A DNA stretch of 60,939 nt, filler included, from Dugesia japonica (taxonomy: Eukaryota): NCBI GenBank assembly GCA_001938525.1. It is 5 parts of 5 records of this genome, joined end to end, with 100 filler letters (N's around TTAATTAATTAA, not from the genome) between each part and the next. Parts side by side here need not be neighbours in the genome. Positions count along the whole stretch, not along the records: positions 45,734 to 60,939 come from MQRL01590621.1; 4 more parts are not named here. One strand, given 5' to 3'. Shown here piece by piece: positions 9,112 through 60,939 of the stretch. The notes beneath the pieces were generated by a model that worked only from the letters and a program-made list of their open reading frames with translations, searched no databases and was not told the DNA's origin. Positions within the stretch are counted from its first letter, which is position 1. Each line of letters begins with the position of its first letter. A program made the position numbers and the translations under genes.

Positions 9112-9211
9112 NNNNNNNNNNNNNNNNNNNNNNNNNNNNNNNNNNNNNNNNNNNNTTAATTAATTAANNNNNNNNNNNNNNNNNNNNNNNNNNNNNNNNN
9201 NNNNNNNNNNN
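9112..9211. other. Artificial contig linker (44N-TTAATTAATTAA-44N)
   Basis: Six-frame stop spacer; identical structure occurs four times. Confidence 0.97.
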
Positions 9212-11092: not shown

Positions 11093-14000
11093 TTGAAACT
11101 ATATGTAAACAGTAGTGAAGAGCCACAAAAAACCCTTATATATCCAAATCTAGAATCTCAGAATTATCAGAGAAATGAACAACGAAAAATGATACTTATC
11201 AGTGATCAAACAGTTAGAGCAGTAGATGGAGTATCAGTCAATTTAATCGTAAAACTACCATGTGAGGTATCTTACAAGGGAAAAACAGTATTACACTATA
11301 TGCCAGTAATGGATACAACTGAAACATGTATGTTGAGAACAGATATACTACCTCAACTATTAGCGAACGGGTTAATCGAATTATCAACGTTAAAAGTCAA
11401 AGATAAAAGGAGAGATCGGTACTCAAATAACTATCAGGTATTTAATTCTGAAAAAATGATCATATCAAGAAAAAGCCAAGTGTGCTATCTCACAGATACA
11501 AAGACTCTACAGAGAGGAACAATGTTATTTGAACCATATTATGGCTTCTCACAGAAATATAAATTGTCTCAGCAGGAGAACTCATGACAGTAAAAGACGA
11601 TGGGAAAGTGCCGGTCAATGTAGTAAATTTCTCAAATAAAGATATCATAATTCATCTAAATTCAAGATTAAGAGCATTGACACCCGTATTAAATATCATC
11701 CAGTAAGAAAAAGGCAAAACTACAGAAGACGACTCGAAATTAAAGTGCTTGGTAGAGGATTGTAAACGTTATATACCAGAAAGTAAACCGACAGAGATAG
11801 ACAGATCATTTTAAGTCAATTCTGAAAACATATCAGCGGAACAAAAGAAACAACTACTAAATCTCTTGGAAGAGTATAGATATATATTTGCGTGGATGGA
11901 CGATAAATTAGGCGAATGTGGCGTCACAATGCATACGATTCCATTAATCAATGAAAACCCAGTAAAACTAAAAGCATACATAATTGCACAATCTGAGAAA
12001 GAAATTTGTGATGCAGAAATTAAGAAATTGTTAGACGCAAAAGTAATTCAACCTAGCTGTTCCCCTTGGCAATTTCGAGTAGTATTGGTTAAAAAGAAAG
12101 ATGGAACCACACGTCTTGGTATGGATTACAGACAATTAAATGCCAAAACAAAAAACGACACCTATCTTTTGCCTGAAATAAACGAATTATTACAATTGTT
12201 GTAGAGTGCAATAATATATTTAACATTTGATCTAAGAAGTGAATATTGGCGATTAAAAATCAAACGAGAAGATAAGAAAAAGACAGCATTTACAGCAGGA
12301 CACGATCTATATCAATTTATTCGAATGCCATTCGATCTAACTAACACACCAGCATCATTTCAGAGATGCATGAGTTTTGTCACACATGGTATAGCACATT
12401 ATATGGTATATATAGACGATCTATTAATATTCTCAACATCGTTTTAAGAACACATAGAGGATTTTCGAACAGTTTTCGTTAGAATTCGACACTGGAATTT
12501 AAAATTCAAACCGACTAAATGCGATTGGGCTAAGAATAAAGTCACCTTCTTAGGACACCAAATATCAGATAAGGTTGGAGAACCAGACCCGAGGAAAACA
12601 GAAAAAATAAAAGAATTTCCAGTGCCTAAATGTGTCAAAGCAATACAAGAATTTCTTAGATTATGCGGATATTACAGGAAATTTATTAAAGGTTATGCAA
12701 CGATTGCAAAACCCATGCAAGATCATGTAAAGCAAGATACAGCCTTTATATGGACAGATGAACAACAAAACCATTCGAATCTCTCAGAGATCAATTACTA
12801 AAAGCACCAATTTTGGCTCATCCAAATTTTGAAAAACCATTTTTACTTGCAACTGATACAAGCGGATACGCAACAGGAGCTGTATTGGGCCAGTATGATG
12901 ATTAACTGCTAGAACACGTTATAGCGTATTTCAGCAAAACATTCCAAGGAGCTGAGAAAAATTACAGCACAACAGAAAGAGAAGCTCTTGCGATAGTAAA
13001 AGCAATTAAATATTTTAGACATTTACTTCTCGGACATGAGGTCATTATATTTTCAGATCATGAATCACTAACTTTGATTGGCCAGAAACCATTATGAACT
13101 CTCAGACTTGCGAAATAGGGCCATGAGTTTACAAGAATACATGCCAAAAATAAAATTCAGGAGCAGCAAAGCAAATTCTAATGCAGATTGTCTATCATGG
13201 GCAATATTTCCAGAACTTGTAAACGAACAAACAGAAGCTATCTATTTCTTATTATCAGAAGACATAGATTTTGAACAATTTAAGGAAAATCAGAAGGAAG
13301 ACTCGAAAGCAAAAATTATTCAGGAATATCTAATGGCAAAGCAAAGTGATGCACTAAAAGACGACCAAGAAATGAGAGAACACTTACTGAAAAATGGATG
13401 TCGTTATACAATAGAAAAGGGATGGTTAATTGCACAGAATGGAAATAAAAAGGCGATATTTGTACCGATACAGCACAGAGAACGAATTTTACAGCAATAC
13501 CATAATGGAATTCTCGGATAACATATGTCAGCAAGAAAAACAGAAACCAAATTAAGACATAAATACTATTGGCCAAGAATCGCTCAAGATGTAAAGGATT
13601 GCATAGCACATTGTCAGATATGCGCTTCTAGAAGAGGAACAGGAGCTTCAGAAAAAGCACCATTAAAACCAATGCCAATACCAACCAAACCAAAAGAGAT
13701 CATGGCGATGGACGTATTCGGAACATTACCCAAAACTGTAGATATAAACTAATACATTTTAGTATGTACGGATTATCTGTCTAAGTATCATGAAGCATTC
13801 CCGATGAAAAATCAAAAAGCCACAACAATAGCAGAAATTTTTGTAAAGGAAATTTGCAGCAAATATGGTACACTAAAGAAAATCCTAACGGATCAAGGCA
13901 GAAATTTTATGAGTGACATTTTTACAGAAGTCAGTAGATACTTCCAAATACTAAAATTAAGAACATCACCGTACCATCCACAGACAGACGGACTAGTAGA

Positions 14001-14500
14001 AAGGTTTAACAGAACCTTAATTAATATGATATCTTGTTATGTCGACAGAAAGCAGAAAGACTTGGATCAATTTATACACTTTGTACTATTTGCTTATCGA
14101 ACACAAGTACGCCCAGCTACTAATTATACTCCATTTTTCCTCATGTAGGTAAGAGAATGTAATTTATCAATCGATTTAGAATATCAACCTCCAATATTAC
14201 AATATATGGAATAAGAAGAGTATGTCATTCGAATAAAAGAGGAAATTCAAGAGATCTGGAATAAAGCAAGATCAAATATTAAATATTATCAAGAAAGTGT
14301 CAAAGATTATCATGACAAGAAAGCAAAAGTAAAATAAAGTAATAGTTAATACTCGAGAAATAGAGATCAGAACAATAGCAAAGTTAAAAAGACCTGGCAA
14401 AGGACCTGTCGAAGTATTAGCAGTCACAGAAACCAATGCAAAAGTCAGATTAGTTGGTAAAATACTTCAGAAATCACTTTGGATTCATGTGAATCGATGT
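11093..14500 (+). pseudogene. pol: Gypsy pol: C-terminal half of protease, RT, RNase H, integrase
   Basis: SCSPWQFRVVLVKKKDGTTRLGMDYRQLN; YIDD at 12409-12420; TDTSGYATGAVL; YSTTEREALAI; HHCC remnant with CQIC; MDVFG, TDQGRNF, PQTDGLVERFNRTL. Confidence 0.95.
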
Positions 14501-15959: not shown

Positions 15960-17900
15960 AGAAGATTAAATATAGAATACTAGATTCTTGATATAGTTTC
16001 TCCCGTTTTATTATTCAAACTAATTTTAAAAAAAGGAGTATACCATACGAGTGGATTGATAATCCATCAAAATATAATGAAATTCATTATGATAAAAATG
16101 ATAGATTTCTTTCTCTATCATTAAAATGGTTTTATTCATCATTACACGGAAAAGGAATAACTGAAGCTGAATATCTAAAATATAAACATGTTTATCAAAT
16201 ATTTAGATGACGAAATTTCCTTGATTACACAACCCTTAATAATAAAGTAGACATATATAATATGGCTGACGCAATAGAAAGATTTAGACAAATAAATGAA
16301 TTAGATCTAACTTATTTTGTCTCAGCTTCTGCTTTAACATAAAAAAACAATTTAGAAACCCATAGAAATTACATTAGATTTATTACAAATTATTCAAATA
16401 TTTGAAAATAGGAATAAGAGAAGGAATTTCTACGGTAATACGAGATAAATATGTTAAAGCAAATAATAAATATACTAATAGAGATTTGGCATATTATAGT
16501 TATCCAGATAAAATAGAATTTCAAAATATATTAAATGATTTCAAAATGTGTGGAAAAAATACAATTAAACTTAAAGAGTGTTTAGAATCCATTTTGCTAT
16601 TATATATCGATGCAAATCATTTATACGGACATTCAATGAGCCAACCTTTACCTTAAAGTAATTTTGAACAAGCCGGGAGAGAAGTAATTAATTGTATAAA
16701 TCGAAATTCAATGCACACATTACAATTTATGTTTAATAAAGCAAAAGAAATACATAATAACGAGTTTAATGTAGGTTATGATTTTAAGGTTGATATACAA
16801 TATAAAGATGATGCAGCAAAATTAGATAATAAGAAATATCCATAAGCTCGTGAAAAAAAAGAAAGATAAAATTAAATGAATTATCTAATTATCAAAAAAC
16901 ATTATAAAATCAATCCAGAAAAAGTTTTTTAAAATAGAAAAATTAGTTTTAAATTTAAATCCAAATAAAAATTACGTTGTATATTGGAAAAATCTAGAAT
17001 ATTATATTCAGAGAGAAATGGTTGTAACAAAGATACACGAAATAGTCTCGTTTGAAGAAAACCCTTGGTTAAAATATTACATATATTATAATAAAAGAAA
17101 AAGAACTGTTGCTACAACTGAGTTTGAGAAAGAGTTGTAGGAATTAATGAATAACGGTTTCTTCGGTAAAACAATGGAGAATATAAGATTGAGAAAAAAC
17201 AGTTAATACACCAGAATAATTTATAACAAGAACTTCTATACTAACATTTAAAAGTTTAAAACAATTTGATGAGAATCTTTTTGCTTTTCATGTTACAAGG
17301 AAACAAATACAAAGGAATAAACCAATTTACATTGGATTTGTTATATTAGAATTATCAAAGTCACATATGTATTAAACTTTCTGTGAAGAATTAAATCCTA
17401 AATTAGGTATCACATCATTATATTGTGACATGGATTCTTGGGTGTTTAAAATTAAATCAGATTATTTATATAAAGAAATAATAGAAATGAATTTAAAAGA
17501 TATATTCAACTTCAGTAATTATGATATAAATAGTAATACTGCAAGAGAATTGCAATTAATTCCTGATGATTTAACTAAGCACAAAAATGTAATTGGTTAT
17601 TTTACAGATGAATTGGGATGTAAAATAATATTAGAATTCTGTGCTTTTAAATCAAAATCATATTGTTTTATAAATGAAGATAAGAAAGAGAAAGATGGAA
17701 TTAAAGAGAAAAAGAAAAAGTGTTGTTTGATGAAGAAATAGATATGAGTAATTACAAGAACTCAATAAAGAACGGTAATTTACAATATAATATTAATTAT
17801 AATATTAGATCAAAATTACATAATATTAATATAGTAAAAAAAATAAAACATTTTTAAATATATATGATGATAAAACATTTTATTACAATAATATAATTAA
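15960..17900 (+). pseudogene. polB: Protein-primed DNA polymerase B, 5'-truncated and decayed
   Basis: KGVYPYEW-like motif, GIREGIS, YIDANHLYGHSM (motif A), LMNNGFFGKTMENIR (motif B), YCDMDS at 17421-17438 (degenerate motif C, no intein). Confidence 0.9.
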
Positions 17901-23247: not shown

Positions 23248-23479
23248 TTATTTTAATTTATTATTTAAATCAGTTATTCCGTATCTAATTAGTTTAGTAT
23301 GATAAATTTTAGTTATTATAATTATTTCATTAATAAATTTTTTTGTTTATTCTTTTTCAAATTTATTGTTATATTTGAGTATTCTAACTTTATCACTTAT
23401 TCGAAACTTTTATTTATTTATGATTTCATCGTTTTCATGATTATGCTTATTAATTATATCTTTTATTTTCTGATGCTTC

Positions 23480-24707
23480 TTTTGGTGATTACTTAATAAT
23501 TGAATAAATTGAATTATTATATCCATTAACTACTTTATATAATAATGCTTTATTTTTAATACTGTTTCCCAATTAATGTAAAATATTTAAACATTTTACT
23601 TTTAAAGTTTTTATTAGTCTTTCAGCAAAAACTCATTTACTTTCATTATTTGTGTGATATAATTTAATATTATTTTCATTTAGAAATTTAACAAAGTATT
23701 TTGATTTTATTGCTGATTCTTTATCAAATCAAATATAATGAGGTAATCTATTATTTTCTTCAAATATATTTTCATAAGTTTCTCTTAAAGATTCTTGACT
23801 TTTTTTTATCATTGGAATGGAAAAATATATCTAGTATATAAATCAATACAAACCAAAATATATCAAAACTTTTCTTGAACAGTAGATTTTCTAACCATAT
23901 ATGCAATATCACATCCCAATGTGTGATATTTATTATGTATGTGTACTTTTAAAAGTCTTTTAGTTTTTCTATATTCATGATGTAATTCAGCTGTATAATT
24001 TATTTGATATTCTGGAGGTTCCCAAATTAATTGTATTATTATCTTCATCTTTTTCTATGCGTTCTTGCGTGGCCTGTTCAATAATCTTTAGATTTGCTAT
24101 ATTTTTAGCAGACCTAGTTCTAAGGTGCTTCAATACACTCTGACTATTTAATCCTCATCCAACTAAAATTTTACTTTTCATAGCTAATTTAACTAAAGCT
24201 CTTTGTATCTTTTCTTTAAATAAAGGACTTACTATATCATTTAAGTCATGAATTAAATTAACTCCAGCGATATGTCTATCTCTTAAATCTTTTGATTTAT
24301 ATGCACTATAATGTTTTAATGTTGCAGCGTCAACTTTATTTGTTGGTTCTTCTCCTGGTAAAGGATTATTATTTTCATCTGATTTAATATTTAATCTTGT
24401 ATTTGAAACAGTATAATTATGTCTAAATAAATGTCTTTCGCCAGGATATTTTTCGAATTTAAATGGTCTTAATGATAATAAAGTAACTTTAAAAGATTGA
24501 ATATCTCCACCAGTTTTCTCCCACGGAAAATAATTAGTTAAATTATTATTTACTGGTTTATCTATTGGTTTATTTGATTGTTTTCTATTTATTTTTTCGG
24601 CAGCTGAATTAAGATTTCTAATACGTTTATCTGTTCTTTCATGTCTAGCTTTGTTTACGTAAACTAGAAGAATTACATACATTACAGTACCAATTTAGAT
24701 CACTCAT
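23480..24707 (-). pseudogene. ZnF-PLA2-integrase gene, decayed
   Basis: WYCNVC..ARH finger; degenerate PLA2 (HNYTVSNT, DAATLKHYSAY); ELHHEYRK; integrase core remnants (FDKES, AERLIKTLK). Confidence 0.8.
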
Positions 24708-36052: not shown

Positions 36053-36865
36053 TTAGAAAAGCGCCTGTAAATTTTGACTAGTTTTTAAAAAGTTATAGTA
36101 ACTTTCGCTAGCAATGTGTCCATATCTTTCACAGTTAAAGCAGTTTTGATTACACGCTGATTGCCAATTATTTTGTCTACCATTACTTTCTCTTCTACAG
36201 TTATTAAATTGTCCTTTTTTATCCGATTGATTCTGATCTGGAGTCAACGATCTCAACAATGGTTGTGTATTGGCTGGTATAAAATCAGTTATATTTGCAA
36301 CTTTCTTTTCCTTCGCTTCCTCAATTTTGGAAATGCTTGCCTGTTTCTGTGAGGCTTTTACCTTTTGTGATTTTCCTGCTTCATTTATAGCTTCATCCAC
36401 CATTTTTGGTTGTCTTAAGTTTACCCATTTACGCACTTCTGCATTTCCTAGACCTTTAATAAATATTCCAAGAATTACTTTATCTTGGACATCTTCTCCA
36501 AGCGCTAATTTTCCGAGTCTTCATAGTTCTGTTGCAAAAGCCTCTAATGATTCGTCCTTTAGTTGTATTCTTGCCGTAAAATCTTGAACTTCCTGTCCTT
36601 GTAATGTCAATGGTTTGAAGTTAATTTCTAATAGCTTCTTCGCTGCTACCCATGTCTTTATTCCATCTTTGACCAACTTCGCTTTATATCAATATATCAA
36701 CTTTGCCGATCCTTTTAAATATAAGTGTAGTCGATCTACTGCCCTTTCCTTACACCATCTACATGCCTTTCGATGAATTTCGTAAGCCGCTATGAAACTC
36801 TCTAATTTCTCTGGAATGCCCGAAAAATGCTCATCATTGAACTCCGTCTTCAAATTCCGATCCAT
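36053..36865 (-). pseudogene. gag: Gypsy-type Gag (capsid domain plus degenerate zinc knuckle)
   Basis: FSGIPEKLESFIAAYE, LHLYLKGSAK, RIQLKDESLEAFATEL, FIKGL, CFNCERYGHIASES; no pol follows. Confidence 0.82.
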
Positions 36866-38600
36866 GTTTACTTTTAGTTCCGCTCATACGAATATTGTCA
36901 TTGTTCAACGTTTCATTTAGGTTTTTCGTCTCGTTATCAGACATATTTGAGTCGTCACTTGATTCTGAACTGTCACTGCAGAAATTATCCAATTGACTTT
37001 TCGGTCGATAAATTGTTATTACGCTGATATCTCCTTAATGCTCTGATGTCATAGGATTTGCTCTTCCTGAATTGGATTTGCTCAATGATATAGTACTGTA
37101 ATTGTATTTCGAATTGTCGATCGGATTTGTTTCTGTTTCACTAGTTTCGTATAAATTGTCTGCCGATTTCACTGAAGTTGATTGAGTTCCTGGTTCCGTT
37201 AAGAATGATTTATCGTATAGATTTCTGCTTTGTGGATTGAGCAATACTGATCTCTGTGTCTTGGCTGGATGTGAATTTTACTCGAATAAGATTTCTGATC
37301 CTTTGTTATATTTTGTAGATTGTATCTGTCAGTTTGGTTATCAATAATGAATTATCTGATTGAGTTCTCGATCGTTTGATTTACTGAATAACCCGAAAGT
37401 AAACTATAAAACACTCCAATTACATTACTTTTTTATGCATTTATCATTAATTTGCGTTAGCTTGTTATCCATTCATACACACTCTTTTTACACATACACT
37501 TTATTAATTATACACATTCTACACACTCTATTAATTCTTAACACATACTTTATTATTTCATAACACATACTTAGTTAACTCTCAATACATAATTTGTTAT
37601 CTCACTAGCAATTATTGCCGTTTACTTCATTACATACAGATACGTCTACTTGTTAATCACGTCTATTCATACCAAATTTTTATTTTTACATACTGCAAAC
37701 TTGTCTGATTTATTAATTTTACTTTACTCTCTAAATTTGCTATGCAGACCTTTAACCTTATTCATTTCACACTTTTGTTTACTACTCCACACACTCGAAG
37801 TTAACTTTTATACTTTATTCACACTCGTTTAACTATTTTTTAATTCTTGCACACGCGATATCTACTTTGTCGACTTACCTTACGCTTTAGAACCTTACGC
37901 TTTAGAATCATTTACTTTATCACAATATTTGAATTACATTTGGTCCACTTCGGCCATACTTATCCCATCTATACTTCACATTAGTACACATTAGTATCTC
38001 TACATAACTACAAATTTCCACAATACTCTATCCAATTTATCCATAATACTCTTCATATTCCACTACAACAATTATTTCACTACAATTCAATATCTCCAAT
38101 ATCTCGAATAACTTTTACTATCTCTTCGAAATAATCTCGTTTAATTTCGCTGCTAAATGTCATCAATACAATTTCATCTCTAATTTCATACCATTTATCA
38201 TTGTCTCAATGCTATTTCATTATTATCGATTTGATCTTCAACCGTGTTCTCCTTCCGTTGGCCAACCAGTAAGGTTCCAAGCATTTATTCCTGATCGCTT
38301 GCTCTGATTGGTGGTCGCGGTGACTCCAACCATGCAATATCACTACTAAAATCTCCTTTAAAATCTCTGCTAATCCTCTAAACAATTATCTCATTAAATA
38401 CTTAGTAACCGGTAGTCTATTACTTCAGTTCCGATTATCACATTCCACTTTCAATAACTCTAAGTAATCGATAGTCTATTATTTCAGCTTCGATTATCGT
38501 TTCCCTAATTTATAATCTCATGGAGTAGCTAGTAGTCTATTTCAATTCAGCTCTAGGCTCTCCAACTAATGTGTCACACTCTCAACTGTAATCTCTAGAA

Positions 38601-40330
38601 CAATGGTTCTCAACCTTTGTGAGGCCATGCCCCATCAAAGTCTCTTTAAAATCCAGATGTCCCCCATATACACAACAGATCGGAAAAGTTCCATAATCTT
38701 AGTACAAGTAATGTATTTTATAAAAAACAGAAACTACAGAATCAAGGTATGCAAAGCAAAACTAAACTTCATAAATATAAAACACATTTATTAAAAGCAT
38801 TTCAATAACCCGTCATAATTTTAATTATTCTTCACTAAATTGTACACAGCTAGTGAGATCCTTGTGCTTGATGCTTACNNNNNNGAGATCTTATATTAGA
38901 TACCAGTTTAGACAATTTTAGTCTTAAGTCTCCCCTTTCAGTGATATTCAATCGATTTTTTTTCTTCAGTAGCAAATCAGTAACAGCACTAAAGCCACAT
39001 TCAGCTAGATATGAAGATGGAAATGGCAGCAACAATTTCCTTGAAAATTTGGTTAAATTTGGATATTTAACCTCTGTCTCATGACACAACCATGCAATTG
39101 CTTCATTCATACTGAACAAAGTTTTCACTGAATCATCATTCTGCATGTCTGAAAATTATTCTTGGTACTGTATTGAAACATTAGTTACATTCACGTGCAT
39201 TGTTTGCATCACCCATGATGGTAAATCAATTTGCTTCAAATCAGAAAATTTTTCATTGAAATCAAATGCCAATATTTTCAGATGGTCCACAATGACAAGC
39301 ACAACAGCATCAGTTACCTCACACTTTTTTAGCCAATGAAGCAGTTCAAAGTTTCTTTCAGAAATATGTTTTTGACNNNNNNNNNNNNNNNNNNNNNNNN
39401 NNNNNNNNNNNNNNNNNNNNNNNNNNNNNNNNNNNNNNNNNNNNNNNNNNNNNNNNNTCCGAAAATATCTGCCAAGTAACTGACAAATGCTTTACCATCA
39501 GTGGTTAGTAGATTTTTCATTTCAGTCTTGTGCCTTAAAAATTCACCAAGAACATCAAATAGTTCCATGAATCTATTTAAGCAATTCCCCTTCGACAGCC
39601 ACCTGACCTCAGTGTGAAGTAAAAGTCTTACATGGTCTGCATTCTCATCTTTACAAAACTGCTTGAAGAGACGCTGACATTTGGCATTGGCTTTAATGGC
39701 ATTGATACATTTTATTACTGATTCCATAATATCATTAAGCACAGGAGAACCATTTTTGGCCACTAAGTTCTCTCTATGAATAACACAGTGCATTCTGAAG
39801 CATGTCAGGATTCGCATCTTTCATTAATTTTAAGCAACTCGATTTCTTCCCCATCATAGCCGGAGCACCATCTGCAGCACAAGATGTTATGTTTTCCATT
39901 GGTATGTTATTGGCATCCAAATAGTCTTTGAACTTTTTGTATATATCAGAGGCCGTAGTGGTGGTCTGTAAAGATTTGCAAAAAAATAGTTTTTCAGCAA
40001 ATTCATCTTTATCAATATATCTTACATTGACCTCATTATCCCTTACAGTTGATTTATCCAGCTGTAGCGAGAAATTTCTNNNNNNNNNNNNNNNNNNNNN
40101 NNNNGTTTCAATGTCATCACTCATTTCATCTATTCTTCTGACAGTATCATTACTAAGTGGCATGGCTTTCACATCTCTGTCATCTTTTTCCAGAACTGTT
40201 TTAATATATGCAGATATTGCCGGTTTAAGTAATTTCTCCCCTATAGTATGATTTTTCCCAGATTTAGAAATGAGTAGGAAAATTTCATAGCTAGCCTCAA
40301 GAATACGACTGATCGAAACAGTTTGTGCAG
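38601..40330 (-). mobile_element. Buster-group hAT DNA transposon (ZBED5/8-like transposase), 5'-truncated and frameshifted
   Basis: FSLQLDKST, ADGAPAMMG, HCVIHRENL, EVRWLSKG, PFPSSYLAECGFS, QAQGSH; TIR-like CAATGGTTCTCAACCTT at 38601, flanked by 8-mer CTCTAGAA (nnnTAnnn). Confidence 0.92.
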
Positions 40331-42502
40331 TTAACCAATCGCTTCGTTTATCTTTGGCATCATTAATTCTCATGCATTAATCTCGCCATAATATCTCTTT
40401 TTATCCTCATTATTTCTCTTCGTTATTACTCATATTTCATCAATCATTAATCCCCATTCAATATCCTTATTTTGTTTCCTCATCATTTTAATCTATTACA
40501 CCTTTAACTTTATTAATCCAATCAATTGTCTTTTAATTCAACTTCTCAAATCTTTTAATTCCTTGTCAATTGTCATCATTATCCGCTTCCTTTGTCATTG
40601 TATTTCTAGTTCACTCATTATACATTCAAATTATTCATATTGATTCTTCATTTAATCATCTTCATTTCCATTTAAATCTTCCATATTCCTTATCATTTTA
40701 ATCATATTCACCATTTTTTACGTGTGTGATTTATCTCCATTATCATCGCGTGTACTTTTACTAATTATTTCCTTGTTTTGATTTAATTTCTTTGATTTTC
40801 CTCCTGATGTTCTTTGCTGAGCATTTTATCTGAATTCCGTAATCATTATTATCGTTGACGTTTCTTTTTATTTCTCGCATAACACTTGATTTTCTCTTTG
40901 ATTTCCTCGTAATCCTTTGTATCTCAGAGACTATTGCATCTACTCCTTTGTTAATTTAAATTACCTTTTATTCATTTCATCTTGTAGATATCCTGATTTT
41001 TATTCGCACTTCTAGTGTAAAAAGCAATTAAAAATCAACTCATTATTTTTCCTGACTTCCAAATTGCTTACCACTGACTCATTCAAATTTATCTCATTTA
41101 CTCGATGTTTAATCGATGTTCTTGATAGAGGGAGAAACAAAAATNNNNNNNNNNNNNNNNNNNNNNNNNNNNNNNNNNNNNNNNNNNNNNNNNNNNNNNN
41201 NNNNNNNNNNNNNNNNNNNNNNNNNNNACAAGTCACTTTTAATTTCTTTGACCATGGACAATCCATGTCATGATTTACTCGATTTCTTTGTAATTACTGA
41301 TGTTCATTGTCGTTTCATCTCAGTGGTCGATCCGAATCAGCCGTTGACAANTCCTTCGATTCAACCACTTTGATTTACTCAGACTTTCATTTAACAATTA
41401 TTAATTTAGTTGATTGTACGATCATTGAGTCCAGAGTCCACGAATATCCACTTCCATGATTGTTCATAGTGGGCGCTCGTATACTCTAACTTTTTCCACC
41501 GTTTAATTAACTTATCTTTATCATTATTTCCATCATATTGTTGTTAATTGTGTCTCAATCCCATAACCAATCGTGCTTGAGCTCTGCATTTCTAACTCCG
41601 ACATGATTGATAACTCAATCTTACACTTCTCTTTCATTATCTAGATGTTNAAATGTGTCTTGATCTTGTTACACGATCCAGAACAGTNTTTATCATTCTA
41701 ACTTTTCCGGACCCGCCAATACGATGTTGCACTTCTCTTTTGATATAACGATGTTTAAATTTCACTTTCATTGCTTGTTCGAGGTTTACGACAAATCCCA
41801 TTTATCATCACTTATATAATAGTGTTTTGATTGAACTCTCGAGCCAAGTGTGATAACTCTGAATCTGTCTTGTTAATTCATTATCTTGCAATAATTTCCT
41901 TGTTTCTGACACTGAAGTTATTGAAATGTAATATTGTAATTATCTCCACTTAATTATATCATTAATTAAAAGATTATTATAAAAATTCATTATTGCTATC
42001 GACACCAGATTTTATTTATTAATCATTGTTATTTATGTTTATCATATTCATCAAATCATAAAATTGGATTACACTCAATTTAACTTTATAACAAATTTTC
42101 CTTTAACCATTTTTGAACAGGCAAGTAGTGTATAATATGATTGTTAAACATAGAAATAAGAAAATTGATGGTACGAAAATTGTATTGTTGCTAACACAAA
42201 TATTTACACAATAGTCTCCTGGATATCAATGGTTTCATCAAGTGGTAACAGAATTTGCTGTAGTGTAACCTTGATTTTAGCACTTAATCGCTCCGACATT
42301 TTAGCAAATTCTTCTACTTTAATTTGCGTAGAACGTACTTTCGGCAGTAGTTGTTGTTGATACGGATTCAACTCGGTAGATCTGATAAGCAGAGACATCA
42401 ATTCTTCTTCTCGTTGTTCTTGTCTGAATATCACCTTCGAGAGTCGATCGTTGTACAGCTTTTCTTTCGATTTTCTTTTCGATACCGATAAAAATATTTA
42501 TT

Positions 42503-45633: not shown

Positions 45634-45733
45634 NNNNNNNNNNNNNNNNNNNNNNNNNNNNNNNNNNNNNNNNNNNNTTAATTAATTAANNNNNNNNNNN
45701 NNNNNNNNNNNNNNNNNNNNNNNNNNNNNNNNN
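45634..45733. other. Artificial contig linker
   Basis: 44N-TTAATTAATTAA-44N. Confidence 0.97.
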
Positions 45734-45745
45734 AATGTTTTTGAA

Positions 45746-48700
45746 GTGGATAATAAACAAAAAATAAAACCACTTTTAATTAATCATTATGAAACAAAAC
45801 CTAAACCTGAAGAAAATAAGTGTAATTTATTATTTTACAAAAATCATTATATCCTTTGTAGAGATGTTAATGTTTTTGTTCGAAATGGAACCAATTCCAA
45901 TCATTACTGTTTAGGGTGTATGAATGCTTATAAAAATACATTAACATTAGAAGAACATCAAAAAGAATGCATTCATCAAGAACCAGCTGCCATTACATTT
46001 CCAAAAGATGAATATTATCAATTTAAAGATTTCGATTTCGTAAATAAAATTCCATTTACACTTTATGGGGATTATGAAACTTACACCGATACCAAGACTA
46101 AAAAACAAAAACCATTATGTATGGGGGTTCAAATTGTAAGTCAATATCCGGATTTAATTCCAAATAAATATTTAAACTTTCCTGGTGAAAATACTATTGA
46201 TTTATTTTTAAAATTTCTAAAGATATTTAACAACTTAGTCGATACTATTTTAGAAAAAAATTAATAGAAACATACACTGGAACTGACCACCCAGCATTCA
46301 CTCCAGAAACTAAATGTAGATATTGTGATGAAATAATATTAGAAAATCCAGTAATTGATCATGACCATTTTAATGGAAAATTTCGTGGATATGCACATTC
46401 AGTTTGTAACATTAATGATCGATCAATAAAAAATTTATTCATACCATTTTATTTCCACAATGGAGCGGGGTATGATAATCATTTATTCTTTACGGAATTA
46501 ATGACAAAATATCCCGATGATGTTATAAAAATAATACCCCATTCCGATGAAGAATACATTTCCTTTCATTATAGAAAAATAAGGTTTCTAGATTCAAATA
46601 AATTATGTCCATTTACACCTGTTGAAAAAATGGGTCAAATGTTATTAAAAGCAAATAGATTTCCAATTACACAATCTCATGGACTAATACCAAAGAAAGC
46701 GCATTATCCTTATTCCTATGTAAAAGGAAAAGATATTCATGAAGTTCAAAAATTATTAAAAAGAAATCAAACCCCAACAAAAGATGATTTCTATAATGAT
46801 TTAAGAGAATCCCCAATGTCCGAAAGTGATTATCAAGAATTTTTAATTGACTACAATCAAGTTCAAGAAGGTGGGCAAAGGAAATTTAAAAACATGTTAA
46901 AATATACTTACCATTATAATAAATTAGACGTAACCATACTTGCAGATTTTATAGAAACACTCCGTGACTTTTCCCTAAAATTTTATAAAATAGATCCATG
47001 CTATTGCTATACCGCACCAGGTTTAACTTGGAGAGCGGGAATGCGATTTACCAAGGCGAAATTAAAATATGCTAAGCCGTGGACCTACGACATCTTTTTA
47101 ATGATCGAACGTGGAATTCGTGGAGGGTATTCCGGATTATGCGGCAGCAGATTGGTATTACCCTTTAACGAAAAGACGCCACATAAATCATTTACCAAGG
47201 ATGAAATGGAAGAACTCCAGAAATTAGCGCGGGAAGGAAAACCAATGGATGATTTAATGCGGGAATCATATTTAAAATATATCGATGCAAATTCTCTATA
47301 TGCAAGCGCCATGACCAAACCCCTTCCAACAGGCGAGATTCACGAAGTAAAACCAGAAATGGAACCAAGTGGCGCATTAACATATGAACCCGCAACTCCA
47401 GAAATGAATTTTATTTATGCCGTCGATCTAGAATATCCACCAGAGATTCATGATAAAACTTATGATTATCCACTAGCGCCAGAAGTATTAAATATTAGGG
47501 AAGAAATGTTAGGACCCTATCAAAAGTCTTTTAAGAAAAAATTACAAAAAGAAAATATAAAACTTACACTAAACCAGTATGATAAAAAAAATTATGTCAT
47601 ACTTGGAAGTACACTAGATCTCTATGTCCAATTAGGAATTAAAATAACTAAAATTCATAGGAAATGTTACATGCCAACATCCCAATGGCTAAAACCCTAT
47701 ATTGAATTCAACATTGAGCAAAGGAAAATTGCCAAGGAAAATCACGATGATTTCGGTGATCATTTCTTTAAATTGTTGAATAATTCGTTCTATGGGAAGA
47801 CCCTAGAAAATATAAGGAATCGATGTGATGTGCAAATTGTTGCAACCGATAAAAAAATTAGGAAATTGGCATCAAAACCCTCATATATTGGATGCAAAGT
47901 TTTTACTAAAGATGGCGAACGCGTTGGCCACGTTGTGGAAATGCATATGCGCAAGCCAAATCTGAAGTATAATAAATTTCAATATATCGGTTTTACGGTT
48001 TTGGAATATGCTAAAGAAATAATGTACAATTACGTTTATAATGAAATGCAAGAAAAATTAGGTAGAAAAAATTATGATATTCATTATTCAGATTCTGTAA
48101 CTCATGATACTCCAATAATTTTACGGAACAAAACCTACCCGGAGGGTGGTGATAGTGAACCAGAAATTAAAATGATTTCAGAAATTACAGAAGATTTTAT
48201 ACCAAGACCAGACGGCAAAGAATATGCAGAAATAAATGATTATGAAATATGGGCAAAATCTGGATGGGTGAAATTAAATAAAGTCATCAGACATTTTACA
48301 AATAAAAAGATTTATAGAGTCACAACAAAAATGGGGGTAGTTGATGTAACTGAAGATCATTCATTATTAGATGAAGAGTCTGAACAAATAAAACCAAGTG
48401 CGTTAACCCCGGAAACAAAATTACTACATAATAGAATGTTTAAATTAACTACTAAATATTGTTTTCAAAGTATAAATCGAATTATAGAAGATAAAGTATC
48501 ACTTGCAAAACTATACCATATTGGATCATCATTAGGAATGAATTTATTTATTGAAGAAGAAGAAAATGGATTTAATATTTCAAAATTAAAAATAAAATTT
48601 GAAATTCCAACAAATGTACAAAGTGTTAAATTTTTAAGAGAGGGACCGGAATGGGTTTACGACATCGAAACCCAAGATGGGACATTTAATTGTGGATTCC

Positions 48701-49191
48701 CCCTAATAATTAAAAATACTGATTCACTATTTGTTCAAGTTTATGGAAAAGAAAATTTAGTAAAATTTGAAAGTACTTTAGGTGATGAACTTTTCCAAAT
48801 GAAAGACGAGTTAAAAGATTCCACTATAACCAAAGCATGTTTCATCAAGGCAAAAAGTTATGCATATTAACACATTAAAAATGATAATCTAGTTTTTAGT
48901 AAAAAACATAAAGGACTTCAATCTTTTAATAAAATTAAAATGGAACAATTTGAACAAGTATTAAATACCCCAGGGGCAGTAGTTATGGGAAAAAATCATT
49001 CTATAAGATCAAGAAATCATGAACTTGAGGTTATTAATCAAGATAAGATAGCATTTGGAGCTTATGATGATAAAAGATTATTATCCAAACATGGGACTAA
49101 ATCATGGCCAGCAGGAAATAAATTTTATTGTGAAAAATGTCACATTTTTCATTTGAGAGTTGATTTATTAAATGGAAAATTAGTATGCTAA
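45746..49191 (+). pseudogene. polB: Protein-primed DNA polymerase B with EndoVII-like insert and an intein; frameshift at the A-run 46254-46260 and in-frame TAA at 48868
   Basis: YGDYETY, CRYC..DHDHFNGKFRGYAHSVCN, FHNGAGYD, YNKLDV, YIDANSLYASAM, KLLNNSFYGKT, YSD//TDS, KHKG, YDDKR. Confidence 0.96.
48094..48717 (+). mobile_element. Intein (208 aa, no intact homing endonuclease) inserted in pPolB motif C
   Basis: Block A SVTHDTPIILR, block B DVTEDHSLL, block F WVYDIETQDGTF, block G LIIKN followed by +1 Thr; removal restores HYSDTDSL. Confidence 0.95.
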
Positions 49192-49231
49192 TATTTTAAT
49201 ATTTTTATACTTCAATTTATTTATAATTAAA

Positions 49232-49909
49232 ATGAGTAACATTACAAAAAATAATATTATAAAAAATAACATCACAGAAGAATCGTTAGCAAAATTAATA
49301 AATTCTGATAAATGTAGAACTGTTAAAATTGATGGTAAAAATTATTGGGTTAGTAAAAAAGTAAAGGATTTAGCTAAATCACGAAAGGAAATGGCAAAAG
49401 ATGAGGGATTTGCATTCCTAGCCGCAATTACAGCAATTATTGCCGGGTTGGCTGGAACTGCCGGAATCGCATCAGGAATTGCAAGTACCGTTGCAAGTTC
49501 AAAACAAGCAATTAAAACTCAAAAAGAAACAGAACGATTGGGAAGCGAAGCCCATAAAGGTACTGGTTTATATTTAAAAACTGATGAAAATCTTGGTAAA
49601 GGTTTATATTTAAAAAAAGACGAAGGATCTGGATTATATTTAAAATCAGATTTAGGTGATAAACTTCAAGGATCGGGATTATATTTAAAACCATATGAAG
49701 GTTCAGCAATTCATAAATATTTTAAAAACATTTTCGATGATTTAAAATTAAAAGATTCAACTAAAAAATTTAAAGATGGAATTGAGATTGAGATTAGTGG
49801 TGATGGACTTTATTTAAAACCTTATAATTATTATGACAAAAATAGTACAAGCCAAAATAGTACAAGCCAAAATAGTCCTAGTAAAAATGGACCTTCGGAA
49901 GAGGATTAA
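49232..49909 (+). CDS. Adenovirus pX-like precursor with five GxGLYLK repeats
   Basis: EGFAFLAAITAIIAGLAGTAGIASGIAS; GTGLYLK, GKGLYLK, GSGLYLK twice, GDGLYLK. Confidence 0.8.
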   Translation: MSNITKNNIIKNNITEESLAKLINSDKCRTVKIDGKNYWVSKKVKDLAKSRKEMAKDEGFAFLAAITAIIAGLAGTAGIASGIASTVASSKQAIKTQKETERLGSEAHKGTGLYLKTDENLGKGLYLKKDEGSGLYLKSDLGDKLQGSGLYLKPYEGSAIHKYFKNIFDDLKLKDSTKKFKDGIEIEISGDGLYLKPYNYYDKNSTSQNSTSQNSPSKNGPSEED

Positions 49910-50915: not shown

Positions 50916-51569
50916 CTAAAGTCTATATCTTCGTAAATGTACTAAAATTGAAATTGGCTCTTGGTTAAAATCTATTGGTCTGAAATCTTGATCTACAACT
51001 TTAAATTCTAAATCTGTAATAAATTTTGTATTTAATTTTGAATAAACAGGAGTATAAGGTCTTTCAATAATTTTATAACCAAAATCAACAGTATTTGATG
51101 GAAATGAATATAATAAATTTACTGGCACTCCATTAATATAATTTGGTTGAATGATATTACAAGTTATATTTATCATGCTAACACTAGAAATGTCACATTT
51201 ATTTTCTGAAACATAATTTCCTGGTTTATAAGTTCCTGGGGCAAAACCTGTNNNNNNNNNNNNNNNNNNNNNNNNNNNNNNNNNNNNNNNNNNNNNNNNN
51301 NNNNNNNNNNNNNNNNNNNNNNNNNNNNNNNNNNNNNNNNNNNNNNNNNNNNNNNNNNNNNNNNNNNNNNNNNNNNNNNNNNNNNNNNNNNNNNNNNNNN
51401 NNNNNNNNNNNNNNTTAAATTTATTATTTTCCACAGTGACATTAAAAATGATATTGTAACATGCGAAACACAATAACCCTAATTCATAATCCGCATCTAA
51501 TTCTATAGGATAAGTTAAATGCATTCTTAAATTACTTTCTTTATTAACTATTAAAAACTGGTTTGACAT
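50916..51569 (-). CDS. Minor capsid protein (penton), spans an N gap
   Basis: PIELDADYELGLLCFACYNIIFNVT; IDFNQEPISILVHLR. Confidence 0.85.
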   Translation of the reverse strand: MSNQFLIVNKESNLRMHLTYPIELDADYELGLLCFACYNIIFNVTVENNKFXXXXXXXXXXXXXXXXXXXXXXXXXXXXXXXXXXXXXXXXXXXXXXXXXXXXXXXTGFAPGTYKPGNYVSENKCDISSVSMINITCNIIQPNYINGVPVNLLYSFPSNTVDFGYKIIERPYTPVYSKLNTKFITDLEFKVVDQDFRPIDFNQEPISILVHLRRYRL

Positions 51570-51776
51570 TATGCTACTTGTTACTATTATGCAATATGCT
51601 ATTTTATAAATAAATAAAATATGGATATTTGTCGCGCCCGCAGGGCGCTATTTAATGTTAGTATTTAGATTTAGTATTTAAATGTTGAATGCTAGTACGA
51701 AATGTTAATGCGAAATGTTAAATGCGATTAATCGCACTTGGGTTTCGCACATTGTTCCGATCGGAACATTTCAAAT

Positions 51777-54924: not shown

Positions 54925-55383
54925 TTAAATACTGGGGATTAATTTATGATACAAATTTTTCATTTCTGAAATTATTACATCAAAATCAGTATCTTTAATC
55001 TTATATAAAAAATAAATGCATAAAATTCCACATATTCTAGTACCAAAATGTTGAACCTGAATTTCATTATATTTCTTTGTAAATTTTTCAATATTTTCTA
55101 AGGGTTTTAATCCAAAAGAATCAAAATAAAATCCATTAAAAAAACATGTCCAATGTGTTCCTTTTTGATTTTGATTTTGGTAATTAAATATTATGGCATC
55201 CTTTAGGATGTCAATGTTTTCCAAACATTTAATAATTTCATTCTTCATACAAATCTCTAAATCTAAATTTAAAAACTCAGCTATTGAATATAAATCAAAA
55301 TTTGTAGTTGTATTAATTCCAAAAGTTTTTAGGAAATCTATTAAATTGAATTCCATTTTCAAGATGTAATTTTTAGTATGCAA
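54925..55383 (-). CDS. Adenain-like cysteine protease, intact ORF
   Basis: GTHWTCF, FYFDSFG, QVQHFGTRICG. Confidence 0.92.
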   Translation of the reverse strand: MHTKNYILKMEFNLIDFLKTFGINTTTNFDLYSIAEFLNLDLEICMKNEIIKCLENIDILKDAIIFNYQNQNQKGTHWTCFFNGFYFDSFGLKPLENIEKFTKKYNEIQVQHFGTRICGILCIYFLYKIKDTDFDVIISEMKNLYHKLIPSI

Positions 55384-55508
55384 ATTTTAATGTGGCAACC
55401 CCTATTGTGAAATCGCACTTAGGTTTCGCATTTGGATTTCGCACTTAGGTTTCATATCGGAATGCCACATTTAGATTTAACCCAAAATATTTATTATAAT
55501 AAATAGTA

Positions 55509-57584: not shown

Positions 57585-58345
57585 CTAGAATAAATCATCT
57601 AACAGTTCATCACTTTCTTTATTTAAATAAAAATAATTATACTTGGTCTTCCAGTGAAGATTAACTTCGTGATCATACTCTAACTTATCATTAAAAATAT
57701 TTGAAAATAATTCATAATAAACATTATCTCTATCAGTTTTATTTAANTTAAAAAATATGTAACAATTAGAATTATTTCTGATAGAGTTTTTATCCAAATG
57801 ATAATAAGTTTGAGAAATATAAATCACATTACAATTTGAATGACGACCTCGAGTAAAATAACTTTTTTGTATTGATTGATTTTTCTCATTGACAACATCG
57901 TCGAAAATTATTAAATTTTTCTTATCTTTAGAAAGTTTATCACAAGGAACAATTTCATTAGGTTTATTACTTAAAGTAACATTAATGGATCTTGATTTTT
58001 TAGTTATCATTTTTTTAGAAATATNNNNNNNNNNNNNNNNNNNNNNNNNNNNNNNNNNNNNNNNNNNNNNNNNNNNNNNNNNNNNNNNNNNNNNNNNNNN
58101 NNNNNNNNNNNNNNNNNNNNNNNNNNNNNNNNNNNNNNNNNNNNNNNNNNNNNNNNNNNNNNNNNNNNNNNNNNNNNNNNNNNNNNNNNNNNNNNNNNNN
58201 NNNNNNNNNNNNNNNNNNNNNNNNNNNNNNNNNNNNNNNNNNNNNNNNNNNNNNNNNNNNNNNNNNNNNNNNNNNTATTTGGAAGGACTTTATTATTAAA
58301 ATTAGTAATATTTTTATTCCATATGAGATTTGGTACTTGCATCAT
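57585..58345 (-). CDS. Packaging ATPase; Walker A hidden in the N gap
   Basis: WNKNITNFNNKVLPN, LIIFDDVV, FTRGRHSN, YISQTYY. Confidence 0.9.
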
Positions 58346-59223: not shown

Positions 59224-60738
59224 TTAATAGCTCGTTTTCTGAAGTTCATTACTATAAAATCTTCCAACAATTTCTTCACCATTTAAATTACTAACTTGGT
59301 ATGTGTATGGTTTTGTTTTATAAATTTTTGTAACAATATAAATTCTCTTTGACCATTTTAAAGTATAAGACTTGGCAAATGTTTTCTTGATAATAAAAAT
59401 CCTTACCCGATCCCCGATCTTAAATTTTGCTTTTTCTTTTAAATCATAATTTTCAGTCATATTTTTTTCATTTTGAATCCGGATAATTTCTGGATTTATT
59501 GATGCCGCTTGGGGTGTTGCTTTTATTGATGAATGAATTGTATTGTTGTAATCATTTACAATTTCTTTTAATAATTCTGATGTTATAACCTGATTCCCAA
59601 CGGCAGTAAAATGTTTAAAGAGTCTGTGTTTAAGAGTTCTGTTAAATCTTTCAATAACAACTGCTTTACCATCATTTTCAGTTGAGTATAAATTTATATG
59701 ATTTTTATCACAAAATTGTTTAAATTTTTCATTATAAAATTCTGTACCTTTATCAACCCATAAATTATTAGAAGTTCTATGAGTGTCATTAAAAATTTTT
59801 TGAAATGCATTTATTACATTTACTGCTAATTTTTTTTTAAAAGTTTCAATAAATGCAAAACGAGTATAGAGATCAATTACTGTTAATATTACATGTTTAT
59901 TTGCATGTTCTGGGCCATGAAATATTAAATCTGCTGACCAAATGTCATCTTTATCATGAACTACTACTTTTAAAAAATGTTTTGGTTTTCTATATTCTTT
60001 ATGAAGTTCATTAACTAAATTTTTATTAGTGGAAACTAATGAGGGGACTACGTCCCCAGATTCATTATTATTAGTGGAAACTAATGAAGCAGCTGCGCTG
60101 CTATTATCCTTGGGTTTTTCGGGATACTCATATTTTTGTTTATTAATTACACTTTTTTTAATTGCCTGTCCAATTACTATTTTACCTTTCATTGCTAATT
60201 TTACTAAAGTTCTTTGTATTTTTTCTGAAGTAGTAGGATCTGGAATATTATTTAAATCATGAATTAAATTTACATCTGCGATATGACGATCGCGTATTTA
60301 GTTAGATGCATACGCTATGTCATGTTTCAATGCTGCTGCGTCAACTCGATTAATTGGTTCTTCTCCTGGTTTTGGATTATTATCAGAATCTAATCTAATA
60401 TCAAGTCTAGTACCTGGTCCTGTGTAATTGTGTTTAAATAAATGTCTTTCACCTGGATATTTTTCTGTAGTAAATGGTTTTAATAAAGTTGATGTAATTT
60501 TACTAGATTGTAAATCTCCTCCTTTATGGGGGCCTCCTTCGATGGATTTTATATCTTTATTGGGGCCTCCAGATTTATCTTTATTGGATTTCAATTTCGG
60601 ATACTGTTTCTGTTTTACATTATTTAAACATAAATCTAAATGTCTCNATCTATTTTTCATCATTACAATTTTACCACAATTTTCACACATGTATTTTTTA
60701 TATGTTTTTGATACTGGTGCTTCCGAAGGATGCGCCAT
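59224..60738 (-). pseudogene. int: ZnF-PLA2-rve integrase gene, single frame with one in-frame TAA
   Basis: CENC..RHLDLC; HNYTGPGT..DAAALKHDIAY; TAA at 60298-60300; IRDRHIADV..LAMKGK; WSADL, WVDKGTEF, IERFNRTLK. Confidence 0.92.
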
Positions 60739-60816: not shown

Positions 60817-60939
60817 TTATCTATTAACATCAGTTCCTTTAAGGTTATCAATCATAACAACTCTGCCACCTGATAATCTCATTTCAATATGTTTCTCTTC
60901 AAGAATACACCAACATAAACTTCCTTGGAATTGGGGATC
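60817..60939 (-). CDS. Major capsid protein C-terminus, running off the window end
   Basis: FQGSLCWCILEEKHIEMRL matches FRGTVHWCILEEKHVEMKL of copy C. Confidence 0.85.
   Translation of the reverse strand, partial: DPQFQGSLCWCILEEKHIEMRLSGGRVVMIDNLKGTDVNR

Follow-up and report, generated by a model that had tools for sequence, protein, structure and literature searches.

The window analysed here is a stretch of 60,939 nt of Dugesia japonica DNA (GenBank assembly GCA_001938525.1). The gene under study occupies positions 59224 to 60738 on its minus strand and belongs to a Polinton (Maverick, adintovirus). It joins a parvovirus-type phospholipase A2 (PLA2) domain and a DDE integrase in one reading frame. 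The copy in the window has decayed, but the fused gene from which it derives is almost certainly real. The fusion itself is well supported as a widespread variant among Polinton genes, of which the window holds a dead example. We put the chances at about even that a strategy like that of retroviral Gag-Pol arose independently in a large group of Polintons. The integrase would be produced only as a C-terminal extension of the PLA2, packaged and released by a protease, with the ratio of the two set by in-frame fusion, -1 ribosomal frameshifting or stop codon read-through.

The fusion gene in the window

The gene and its parts are as follows.

59224..60738, minus strand: Polinton/adintovirus gene that fuses leader, PLA2 and integrase, now decayed; 504 codons with one internal stop
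60628..60687, minus strand: C2HC zinc-finger-like motif of the N-terminal leader, recognised in the sequence and optional in the family
60508..60522, minus strand: GG|DLQ, where the PLA2 domain starts and a protease site is predicted (family motif conservation)
60163..60516, minus strand: parvovirus-VP1u-type PLA2 domain (Pfam PF08398, family profile and residue counts)
60298..60300, minus strand: internal TAA of the PLA2, past the His-Asp pair and ahead of the second Asp; relatives are open here
60163..60177, minus strand: VIGQA at the PLA2-ending G-x-G/GG position, predicted protease site (family motif; this copy is off consensus)
60013..60162, minus strand: low-complexity in-frame linker of about 50 codons, from the sequence
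59224..60012, minus strand: rve integrase with D270, D329 and E363 (Pfam rve)

The original prediction of a single frame of 504 codons with one TAA inside the PLA2 agrees with both the translation and the Pfam domains. The frame runs from 60738 to 59224 and ends in a terminal stop; codon 147 is the TAA, and codon 31 contains an N. It encodes a basic zinc-finger-like leader, the PLA2, the linker and the integrase, in this order. The parvovirus type of the PLA2 is likewise borne out. The Pfam family Phospholip_A2_4 (PF08398) matches residues 99-144 with 31.4 bits (cut-off 23.9), and the motif set is complete: the calcium-loop YTGPG at 60426-60412, the His-Asp pair in KHDIAY at 60327-60310 and the second Asp in IADV at 60282-60271, which is cut off by the stop. 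In the piece downstream of the stop, rve (PF00665) is matched with 36.3 bits (cut-off 32.6), and the integrase resembles the HTLV-2 integrase core with an E-value of 6e-4. Its C-terminal tail is presumably SH3-like. The stop-free relative P0002 shares 56% identity with the gene over 441 columns, and the C-terminal ends of the two coincide. The leader motif reads C-x2-C-x11-H-x3-C. No Pfam cut-off was reached by the leader, whose best match, with an E-value of 0.025, is a zinc-finger family. The chromodomain regarded as a mark of adintoviruses (Buck et al. 2024) was not found, as Pfam gave no Chromo match in the gene or in the relatives P0002, P0004 and P0006. The chromodomain entry PF00385 is given for 10 of the 120 best matches and for the locus L087.

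The junction between the two domains is in frame. The linker contains an A7 run and shares 30% amino acid identity with that of copy C. It holds no in-phase slippery heptamer (X_XXY_YYZ), so there is no -1 frameshift cassette at this place.

The window is composed of five separate contigs joined through N44-TTAATTAATTAA-N44 spacers at 9112-9211, 24923-25022, 34868-34967 and 45634-45733, and four of the contigs contain Polinton pieces. Since the contigs are separate, what the original prediction called copies are different elements. The three elements share 70-79% DNA identity across their aligned pieces. The two further fusion genes are as follows.

30331..31736, minus strand: copy C, the fusion gene of the second element, between the capsid and ATPase genes
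23257..24707 (lower end approximate), minus strand: copy B, the third fusion gene, heavily decayed

Copy C, described before as single-frame, changes frame inside the zinc finger, so that the CxxC lies in another frame and only the part beginning with the later half of the finger is read in one; one stop lies in the linker at 31191-31189. Copy B, said before to show the same domain order, is scattered over three frames with many stops. Both domains are under purifying selection. By a simple counting method applied to AT-rich DNA, with decay included, the ratio of nonsynonymous to synonymous substitution rates between the gene at 59224..60738 and copy C is 0.21 in the PLA2 (116 codons) and 0.46 in the integrase (260 codons). 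The element on the last contig is considered decayed, because its protein-primed DNA polymerase B (pPolB) carries a premature stop of its own, and the TAA of the fusion gene is read as decay as well.

Fused relatives and the link between PLA2 and integrase

Residues 80-504 of the protein, with X at the stop, were used as the query of a family search. It gave 658 matches, of which the best 120, in a length range of 277-882 aa, were retained. Stop-free copies, whose existence would confirm the fusion, make up most of these. A single protein without stops and matching both the PLA2 and the integrase profiles was found in 110 of the 120 (111 by alignment columns), a count that is inflated by the choice of a fused query and of a length range and therefore speaks for the existence of the fused form and not for its frequency. 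Together with the three window elements, which are broken at different places, these relatives support the proposed decay of a fused ancestral gene. Among the 111 relatives covering the key columns, 110 keep the PLA2 His, 109 the Asp that follows it and all 111 the second Asp; the DDE triad is complete in 109. From these residues we infer that the PLA2 and the integrase of the family would be catalytically active. In searches of the PDB, the family profile matched the foamy-virus (PFV) and other retroviral integrases with an E-value of 1e-10, and residues 44-83 of approximately 724-aa chains named 'Capsid protein' with an E-value of 0.008. The zinc finger, which had been put forward as a set part of the protein, did not hold up as such: it occurs in just 21 of 110 relatives and in two different types (C2H2/C2HC in 11, C4/DUF5679-like in 10), while 68 have a short leader without a finger and 21 have other leaders. 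The same domain pair appears in automatic clusters of the ESM Atlas named 'Phospholipase A2-like/Integrase core domain-containing protein', with 184, 111 and 72 members. With scores of 0.82-0.85 these are leads only; the names are machine-made, and no function, context or recoding is described.

Several observations on single relatives were made. P0084 and P0114, of about 650 aa, carry an insert of approximately 250 residues between the PLA2 and the integrase. Two Lottia gigantea gene models (P0213 and P0232) have an in-frame junction and break off within the first few residues of the integrase, which implies that the in-frame form occurs in a mollusc. Whole or near-whole Polintons are present in bacterial metagenome-assembled genomes of GTDB (L087, L088, L083 and L106), evidently as contamination. 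The family is very abundant in sequencing runs of one organism, two of which contain 8,107 and 7,301 contig records matching 1.8 kb. Poly-A libraries, 0.7-0.9 Gb of contigs in the runs richest in the family and relatives in a limpet point to an animal host.

DNA loci were fetched by scans that need no open frame. The set consists of L001-L110, with L082 dropped, as it lies on the same contig as L001, and L171 added. The end of the PLA2 adjoins the start of the integrase in 67 of the 110 loci, in frame in 32, in the -1 frame in 26 and in the +1 frame in nine. Frame changes are concentrated at the junction, with 35 in 3,424 nt there versus 12 in 71,023 nt inside the domains. In the long mapped loci with both genes, a single PLA2 was found, immediately ahead of the integrase; only in L102 do they lie far apart. 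A stop-free set of 35 loci was defined by the absence of stops in the PLA2 and the first integrase segment, L088 being dropped because its junction is identical to that of L087. Sixteen of these are in frame, including L071 and L072 with stops in the junction, 15 are in the -1 frame and four in the +1 frame. Of the 15 loci of the -1 type, 13 have a slippery heptamer in phase, versus six of the 16 in-frame loci, and runs of six or more A coincide with a shift at 18 of 23 junctions versus at most five of 57 places inside the domains. A separate start of the integrase was considered for the 19 shifted loci of this set; an AUG ahead of the first catalytic Asp exists in two, and for the other 17, in which none precedes this residue, such a start is rejected. 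An intron across the junction is also unsupported, as the junctions measure about 30-75 nt and show no common splice signals by eye. A scan of IMG/VR with the junction DNA pattern returned 50 matches, none with PLA2 or integrase, and a further viral scan added no contig beyond one that was already known. Relatives with the two domains in different frames, which the original prediction missed, do occur in other clades, but mostly without an AUG for the integrase and across a slippery site. They extend the idea of a fusion and do not refute it.

In a tree of 216 integrase sequences (FastTree, midpoint root), the three window elements fall into one clade (support 0.97), and the junction is in frame in all five DNA loci of this clade. 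The same is true of L018, a complete-looking element outside the clade. The evidence for a -1 frameshift is strong in the lineage of L084, L087 and L088, as judged from its sequence. Here, the predicted slippery site A_AAA_AAC is followed by a 5-nt spacer and a 12-bp stem with z-scores of -2.8 (L084), -5.2 (L087) and -4.4 (L088). L084 and L087 share about 73% DNA identity and each of the 12 pairs of the stem; one compensatory change affects both sides of the stem and two changes affect one side. The first AUG of the L084/L087 lineage falls after the first catalytic Asp. The core genes of L087 are all open frames and L088 has terminal inverted repeats. Such repeats were not found in L001, L018 and L083, and the top inverted repeats of L087 are internal simple repeats.

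A large and apparently marine clade has bare A-tracts after G-L-G. Its junctions are mostly of the -1 type and a heptamer is usually present, which makes a -1 frameshift plausible there as well. Ribosomal slippage, polymerase slippage and plain homopolymer mutation are indistinguishable in this clade. Long-contig assemblies (P0097, P0118 and the cluster members P0160-P0185) contain both fused proteins of 460-470 aa and PLA2-only proteins of 166-169 aa. The contig L067:1-6005 carries three tandem PLA2/integrase units, of which the two that were scored are both -1 with the same A6 junction. A third kind of link is represented by a single case. At L071:7500-7509, TAG CAA TTA (UAG-CAA-UUA) stands between the PLA2 and a standard integrase in one frame, and no AUG lies ahead of the first catalytic Asp. 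We take this to be a read-through context of the plant-virus type.

Glycine motifs and the proposed packaging of the integrase

The PLA2 domain is flanked by glycine motifs. It is closed by GxG (88 relatives) or GG (12 relatives) in 100 of 110 relatives, versus four of 1524 equal background windows of the integrase. At the other end, where the PLA2 starts with DxQ, GG stands no more than six residues ahead of it in 58 of the 70 relatives whose leader has at least 8 aa and in seven of the 17 whose leader is shorter. The linker is no longer than six residues in 39 of 110 relatives. In the related mavirus, GG|X and GX|G are cleaved by the protease, and both the integrase and a cleaved lipase-like protein are found in the virions (Born et al. 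2018, PMC6048507); the packaging of the integrase is restated in PMC6428243.

We propose loading into the particle and cutting at the glycine sites because of the conservation of the motifs and this precedent of the mavirus protease and virion. It appears fairly probable from the sequences that the intact product would be a Gag-Pol-like precursor that is taken up into the particle and processed by the protease of the element itself at the glycine motifs on either side of the PLA2. The precursor would be made together with the capsid genes in late expression, and its PLA2 part would drag the integrase into the particle. PLA2 is a virion protein in parvoviruses and is presumed to be one in Polintons. 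An integrase made only as the C-terminal extension of a virion PLA2 would therefore be packaged. The protease would then cut at GG|D and G-x-G and free both parts. The freed PLA2 would breach the endosome, and the freed integrase would insert the incoming genome before viral gene expression is needed. In the window's clade, the in-frame fusion would yield PLA2 and integrase at 1:1. In the other clades, their ratio would be set by a -1 ribosomal frameshift, either of the hairpin type or on a bare A-tract, and at one locus possibly by read-through of a stop. Delivery of the integrase in the particle is what we infer from this comparison, with mavirus as a close precedent.

Several results weigh against this interpretation. 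Most Polinton integrases stand alone. No adjacent PLA2 end was found in 43 of the 110 loci, some of which are cut by contig ends, and one contaminated genome contains dozens of integrase-only matches. The enrichment of the family search, mentioned above, belongs here too. The p-values of the junction statistics (0.009 and 2e-9) overstate the case, because the loci are not independent: they are related, and some samples contributed several of them. The hairpin is known from two distinct sequences and the read-through from one. In the A-tract clade, folding of the 60 nt 3' of the heptamer into simple structures gave no downstream structure (z about 0), and +1 and in-frame alleles also occur. The PLA2-only proteins of 166-169 aa end just after the Lys run and one assembly carries both forms, which are either real alleles or homopolymer errors. 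Ten of 110 relatives lack the PLA2-ending glycine motif, and the window gene itself reads G-Q-A. The same motif also ends stand-alone PLA2 relatives, where a short tail follows. The site thus predates the fusion and need not be kept for the release of the integrase, which took the place of this tail. Two RNA runs gave one and 35 reads against the window copy, all partial fits, with no read at least 99% alike and none spanning the junction.

The fusion might be packaged and yet stay uncut, as one bifunctional protein on the genome ends with the PLA2 acting while tethered. The off-consensus downstream site of the window gene, the relatives without the motif and the short linkers, which may hinder access of the protease, are consistent with this. 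The placement of GxG or GG exactly at the junction, far above background, and the cutting of such motifs by the related mavirus protease, as far as the available text of that study goes, argue against it, and we consider it unlikely. Slightly less likely still is that the link merely serves to express the integrase from the promoter and start codon of the PLA2, the integrase working unpackaged in the producing cell. It is true that the two genes lie apart in most Polintons, such as L102 and those of the accessible literature, and that an element with a DNA genome could do without packaging, since its genes can be transcribed once it has entered the cell. Such a role in expression does not sit well with a link that is kept in three forms and always lies right after the glycine motif of the PLA2, nor with the packaging of the integrase that is reported for mavirus.

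Other doubts concern the frames. The shifted junctions of the A-tract clade, which bear on relatives and not on the window copy, may be homopolymer mutations or assembly noise of an in-frame gene. We regard this as rather improbable in general, somewhat less so when the A-tract clade is judged alone, and very improbable for the hairpin lineage, whose conserved hairpin in L084 and L087 noise cannot explain. The lack of a stimulatory structure in the A-tract clade, the mixture of 0, -1 and +1 alleles within clades and single assemblies, and the shift of L001, which by eye lies downstream of its A-tract, would fit with noise. Against noise, A-runs of six or more carry a shift at the junction in most cases and inside the domains in few; -1 exceeds +1 by 15 to four, and both scored units of L067 are -1 with only A6. 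A functional role of the TAA in the window gene, through read-through or as a deliberate split, is given hardly any credence. One relative, L071, does have a read-through-type junction. The TAA, however, cuts the PLA2 between its catalytic residues, whereas all 111 aligned relatives run on to the second Asp, and the bases around it do not fit UAG-CAR-YYA. In the other two window elements the breaks lie elsewhere, and the pPolB on the same contig is also prematurely stopped. We therefore retain decay of a fused gene as the explanation for the window copy.

The host element and comparison with known systems

The genes surrounding the fusion gene on its contig are as follows.

60838..60939, minus strand: major capsid gene, of which the C-terminal tail is left next to the fusion gene on its upstream side, where the contig ends (likeness to the capsid tail of contig 3, by eye)
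57585..58289, minus strand: A32-type packaging ATPase, downstream of the fusion gene, partly N (Pfam Pox_A32)
54925..55386, minus strand: adenain-type maturation protease (tblastn to the protease open reading frames of L087 and L018, E-values of about 1e-11 to 1e-12; H, D, Q and C motifs)
50916..51647, minus strand: penton (minor capsid)-like gene (tblastn to open reading frames of L018 and L087; labelled by gene order and resemblance)
45734..49191, plus strand: pPolB, truncated at the 5' side by the contig boundary; contains an intein and, at 48868-48870, a premature stop (Pfam DNA_pol_B_2)

The fusion gene lies between the capsid and ATPase genes, and contig 3 repeats the order capsid, fusion, ATPase. 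The capsid gene of contig 3 matches the Pfam entry DJR-like_dom, and contig 5 retains the capsid tail only. DNA_pol_B_2 is matched at 46231-48870 with an E-value of 3e-16; the contig begins inside PolB, at whose N-terminus adintoviruses in the sense of Buck et al. 2024 have an OTU-like domain. The genes by which a Polinton/Maverick (adintovirus) is recognised are thus found: pPolB, the DDE rve integrase, the double jelly-roll capsid and penton proteins, the A32 ATPase and the adenain. Terminal inverted repeats were not found in the contigs of the window, and contig 5 is cut at both ends. An inverted pair on contig 5 (50771-50827 and 58485-58541), located at gene ends, has a short palindromic motif in common. 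The intein inside the pPolB (approximately 48094-48717, plus strand) has visible splicing ends, YSD|S...N|TDS, and matches TIGR01445 with 25.6 bits (cut-off 24.5). In an animal host, if that is what it is, such an intein would be unusual. Homing endonucleases have been taken as a sign that inteins invaded polinton pPolB (Krupovic 2024, from the accessible part). Small proteins with a hydrophobic helix and several G-x-G-L-Y-L repeats, candidates for multiple protease sites, are encoded at 49184-49909 (plus strand) and 27743-28201 (minus strand). Contig 2 carries remnants of a second, distant integrase and PolB fragments (13753-14145 and 16384-17827, both plus strand). Contig 4 is not a Polinton; by eye it contains an apparent hAT-type transposase and gag-like remnants (36053-40376, minus strand), and no Pfam match was obtained in the two pieces of it that were scanned.

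In the Gag-Pol of retroviruses and long terminal repeat retrotransposons, the integrase lies downstream of a particle protein, is linked to it in frame, by -1 frameshifting at X_XXY_YYZ with a 3' structure or by read-through of UAG, and is released by a protease. The Polinton gene is alike in that the integrase lies downstream of a presumed particle protein and is predicted to be linked to it by the same three routes. It differs in that it belongs to a double-stranded DNA jelly-roll virus, that the carrier is a small PLA2 and not a capsid polyprotein, that the papain-like adenain is separate and that there is no reverse transcriptase. The PLA2 unique to VP1 of parvoviruses has the same domain and catalytic motifs, but is fused to the capsid protein there and to the integrase here. 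Mavirus has an rve integrase (MV02) and a lipase-like protein (MV13) in its virion and a clan-CE protease (MVP) that cleaves GG|X and GX|G, and the present family would resemble it in these respects. The mavirus genes are separate, MV13 is an alpha/beta hydrolase and not a PLA2, and neither fusion nor recoding is mentioned in the accessible part of PMC6048507.

A parvovirus-VP1u-like PLA2 in Polintons has been described as PLA2X of adintoviruses (Starrett et al. 2021, PMC8502044) and as 'CAP' (Geisler 2018, PMC5803895). According to the parts available, PLA2X is a presumed virion entry factor, stands alone with a short pX-like C-terminal tail and is typical of Alpha virion modules, and one map row in the supplement shows Integrase and PLA2X apart. 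The frame of the window gene, in contrast, runs on into the integrase, which replaces the short tail, and its neighbours resemble accessory genes of Beta modules, as far as motif resemblance goes. Buck 2024 (PMC11071296), in the part available, predicts -1 frameshifts for Penton and for a Hexon-Adenain fusion, not for PLA2-integrase. No PLA2-integrase link appears in the accessible parts of Geisler 2018, Yutin 2013 (PMC3671162), Yutin 2015 (PMC4642659) and two 2026 preprints, and those of PMC12567637 and PMC11161782 hold nothing on such a fusion. The main text of the coral polintovirus paper (PMC11131425) contains neither 'phospholip' nor 'lipase'. In open-access full text, the Polinton PLA2 appears only separately or without a stated link to the integrase; Repbase, subscription journals, figure maps and supplements may differ. 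A description of the fusion or the frameshift was thus not found in the open-access literature, and the domain pair is already present in automatic database clusters.

The route by which the Polinton integrase reaches the incoming genome is at issue, and the fusion gene suggests how it might be packaged and where the protease might cut. If the proposed strategy is correct, it would represent a convergence on Gag-Pol in a double-stranded DNA jelly-roll virus. Many database entries called 'PLA2-only' or N-terminally truncated 'integrase' would then each represent half of a single recoded gene, and copies that were taken for pseudogenes because of a frame shift may be intact.
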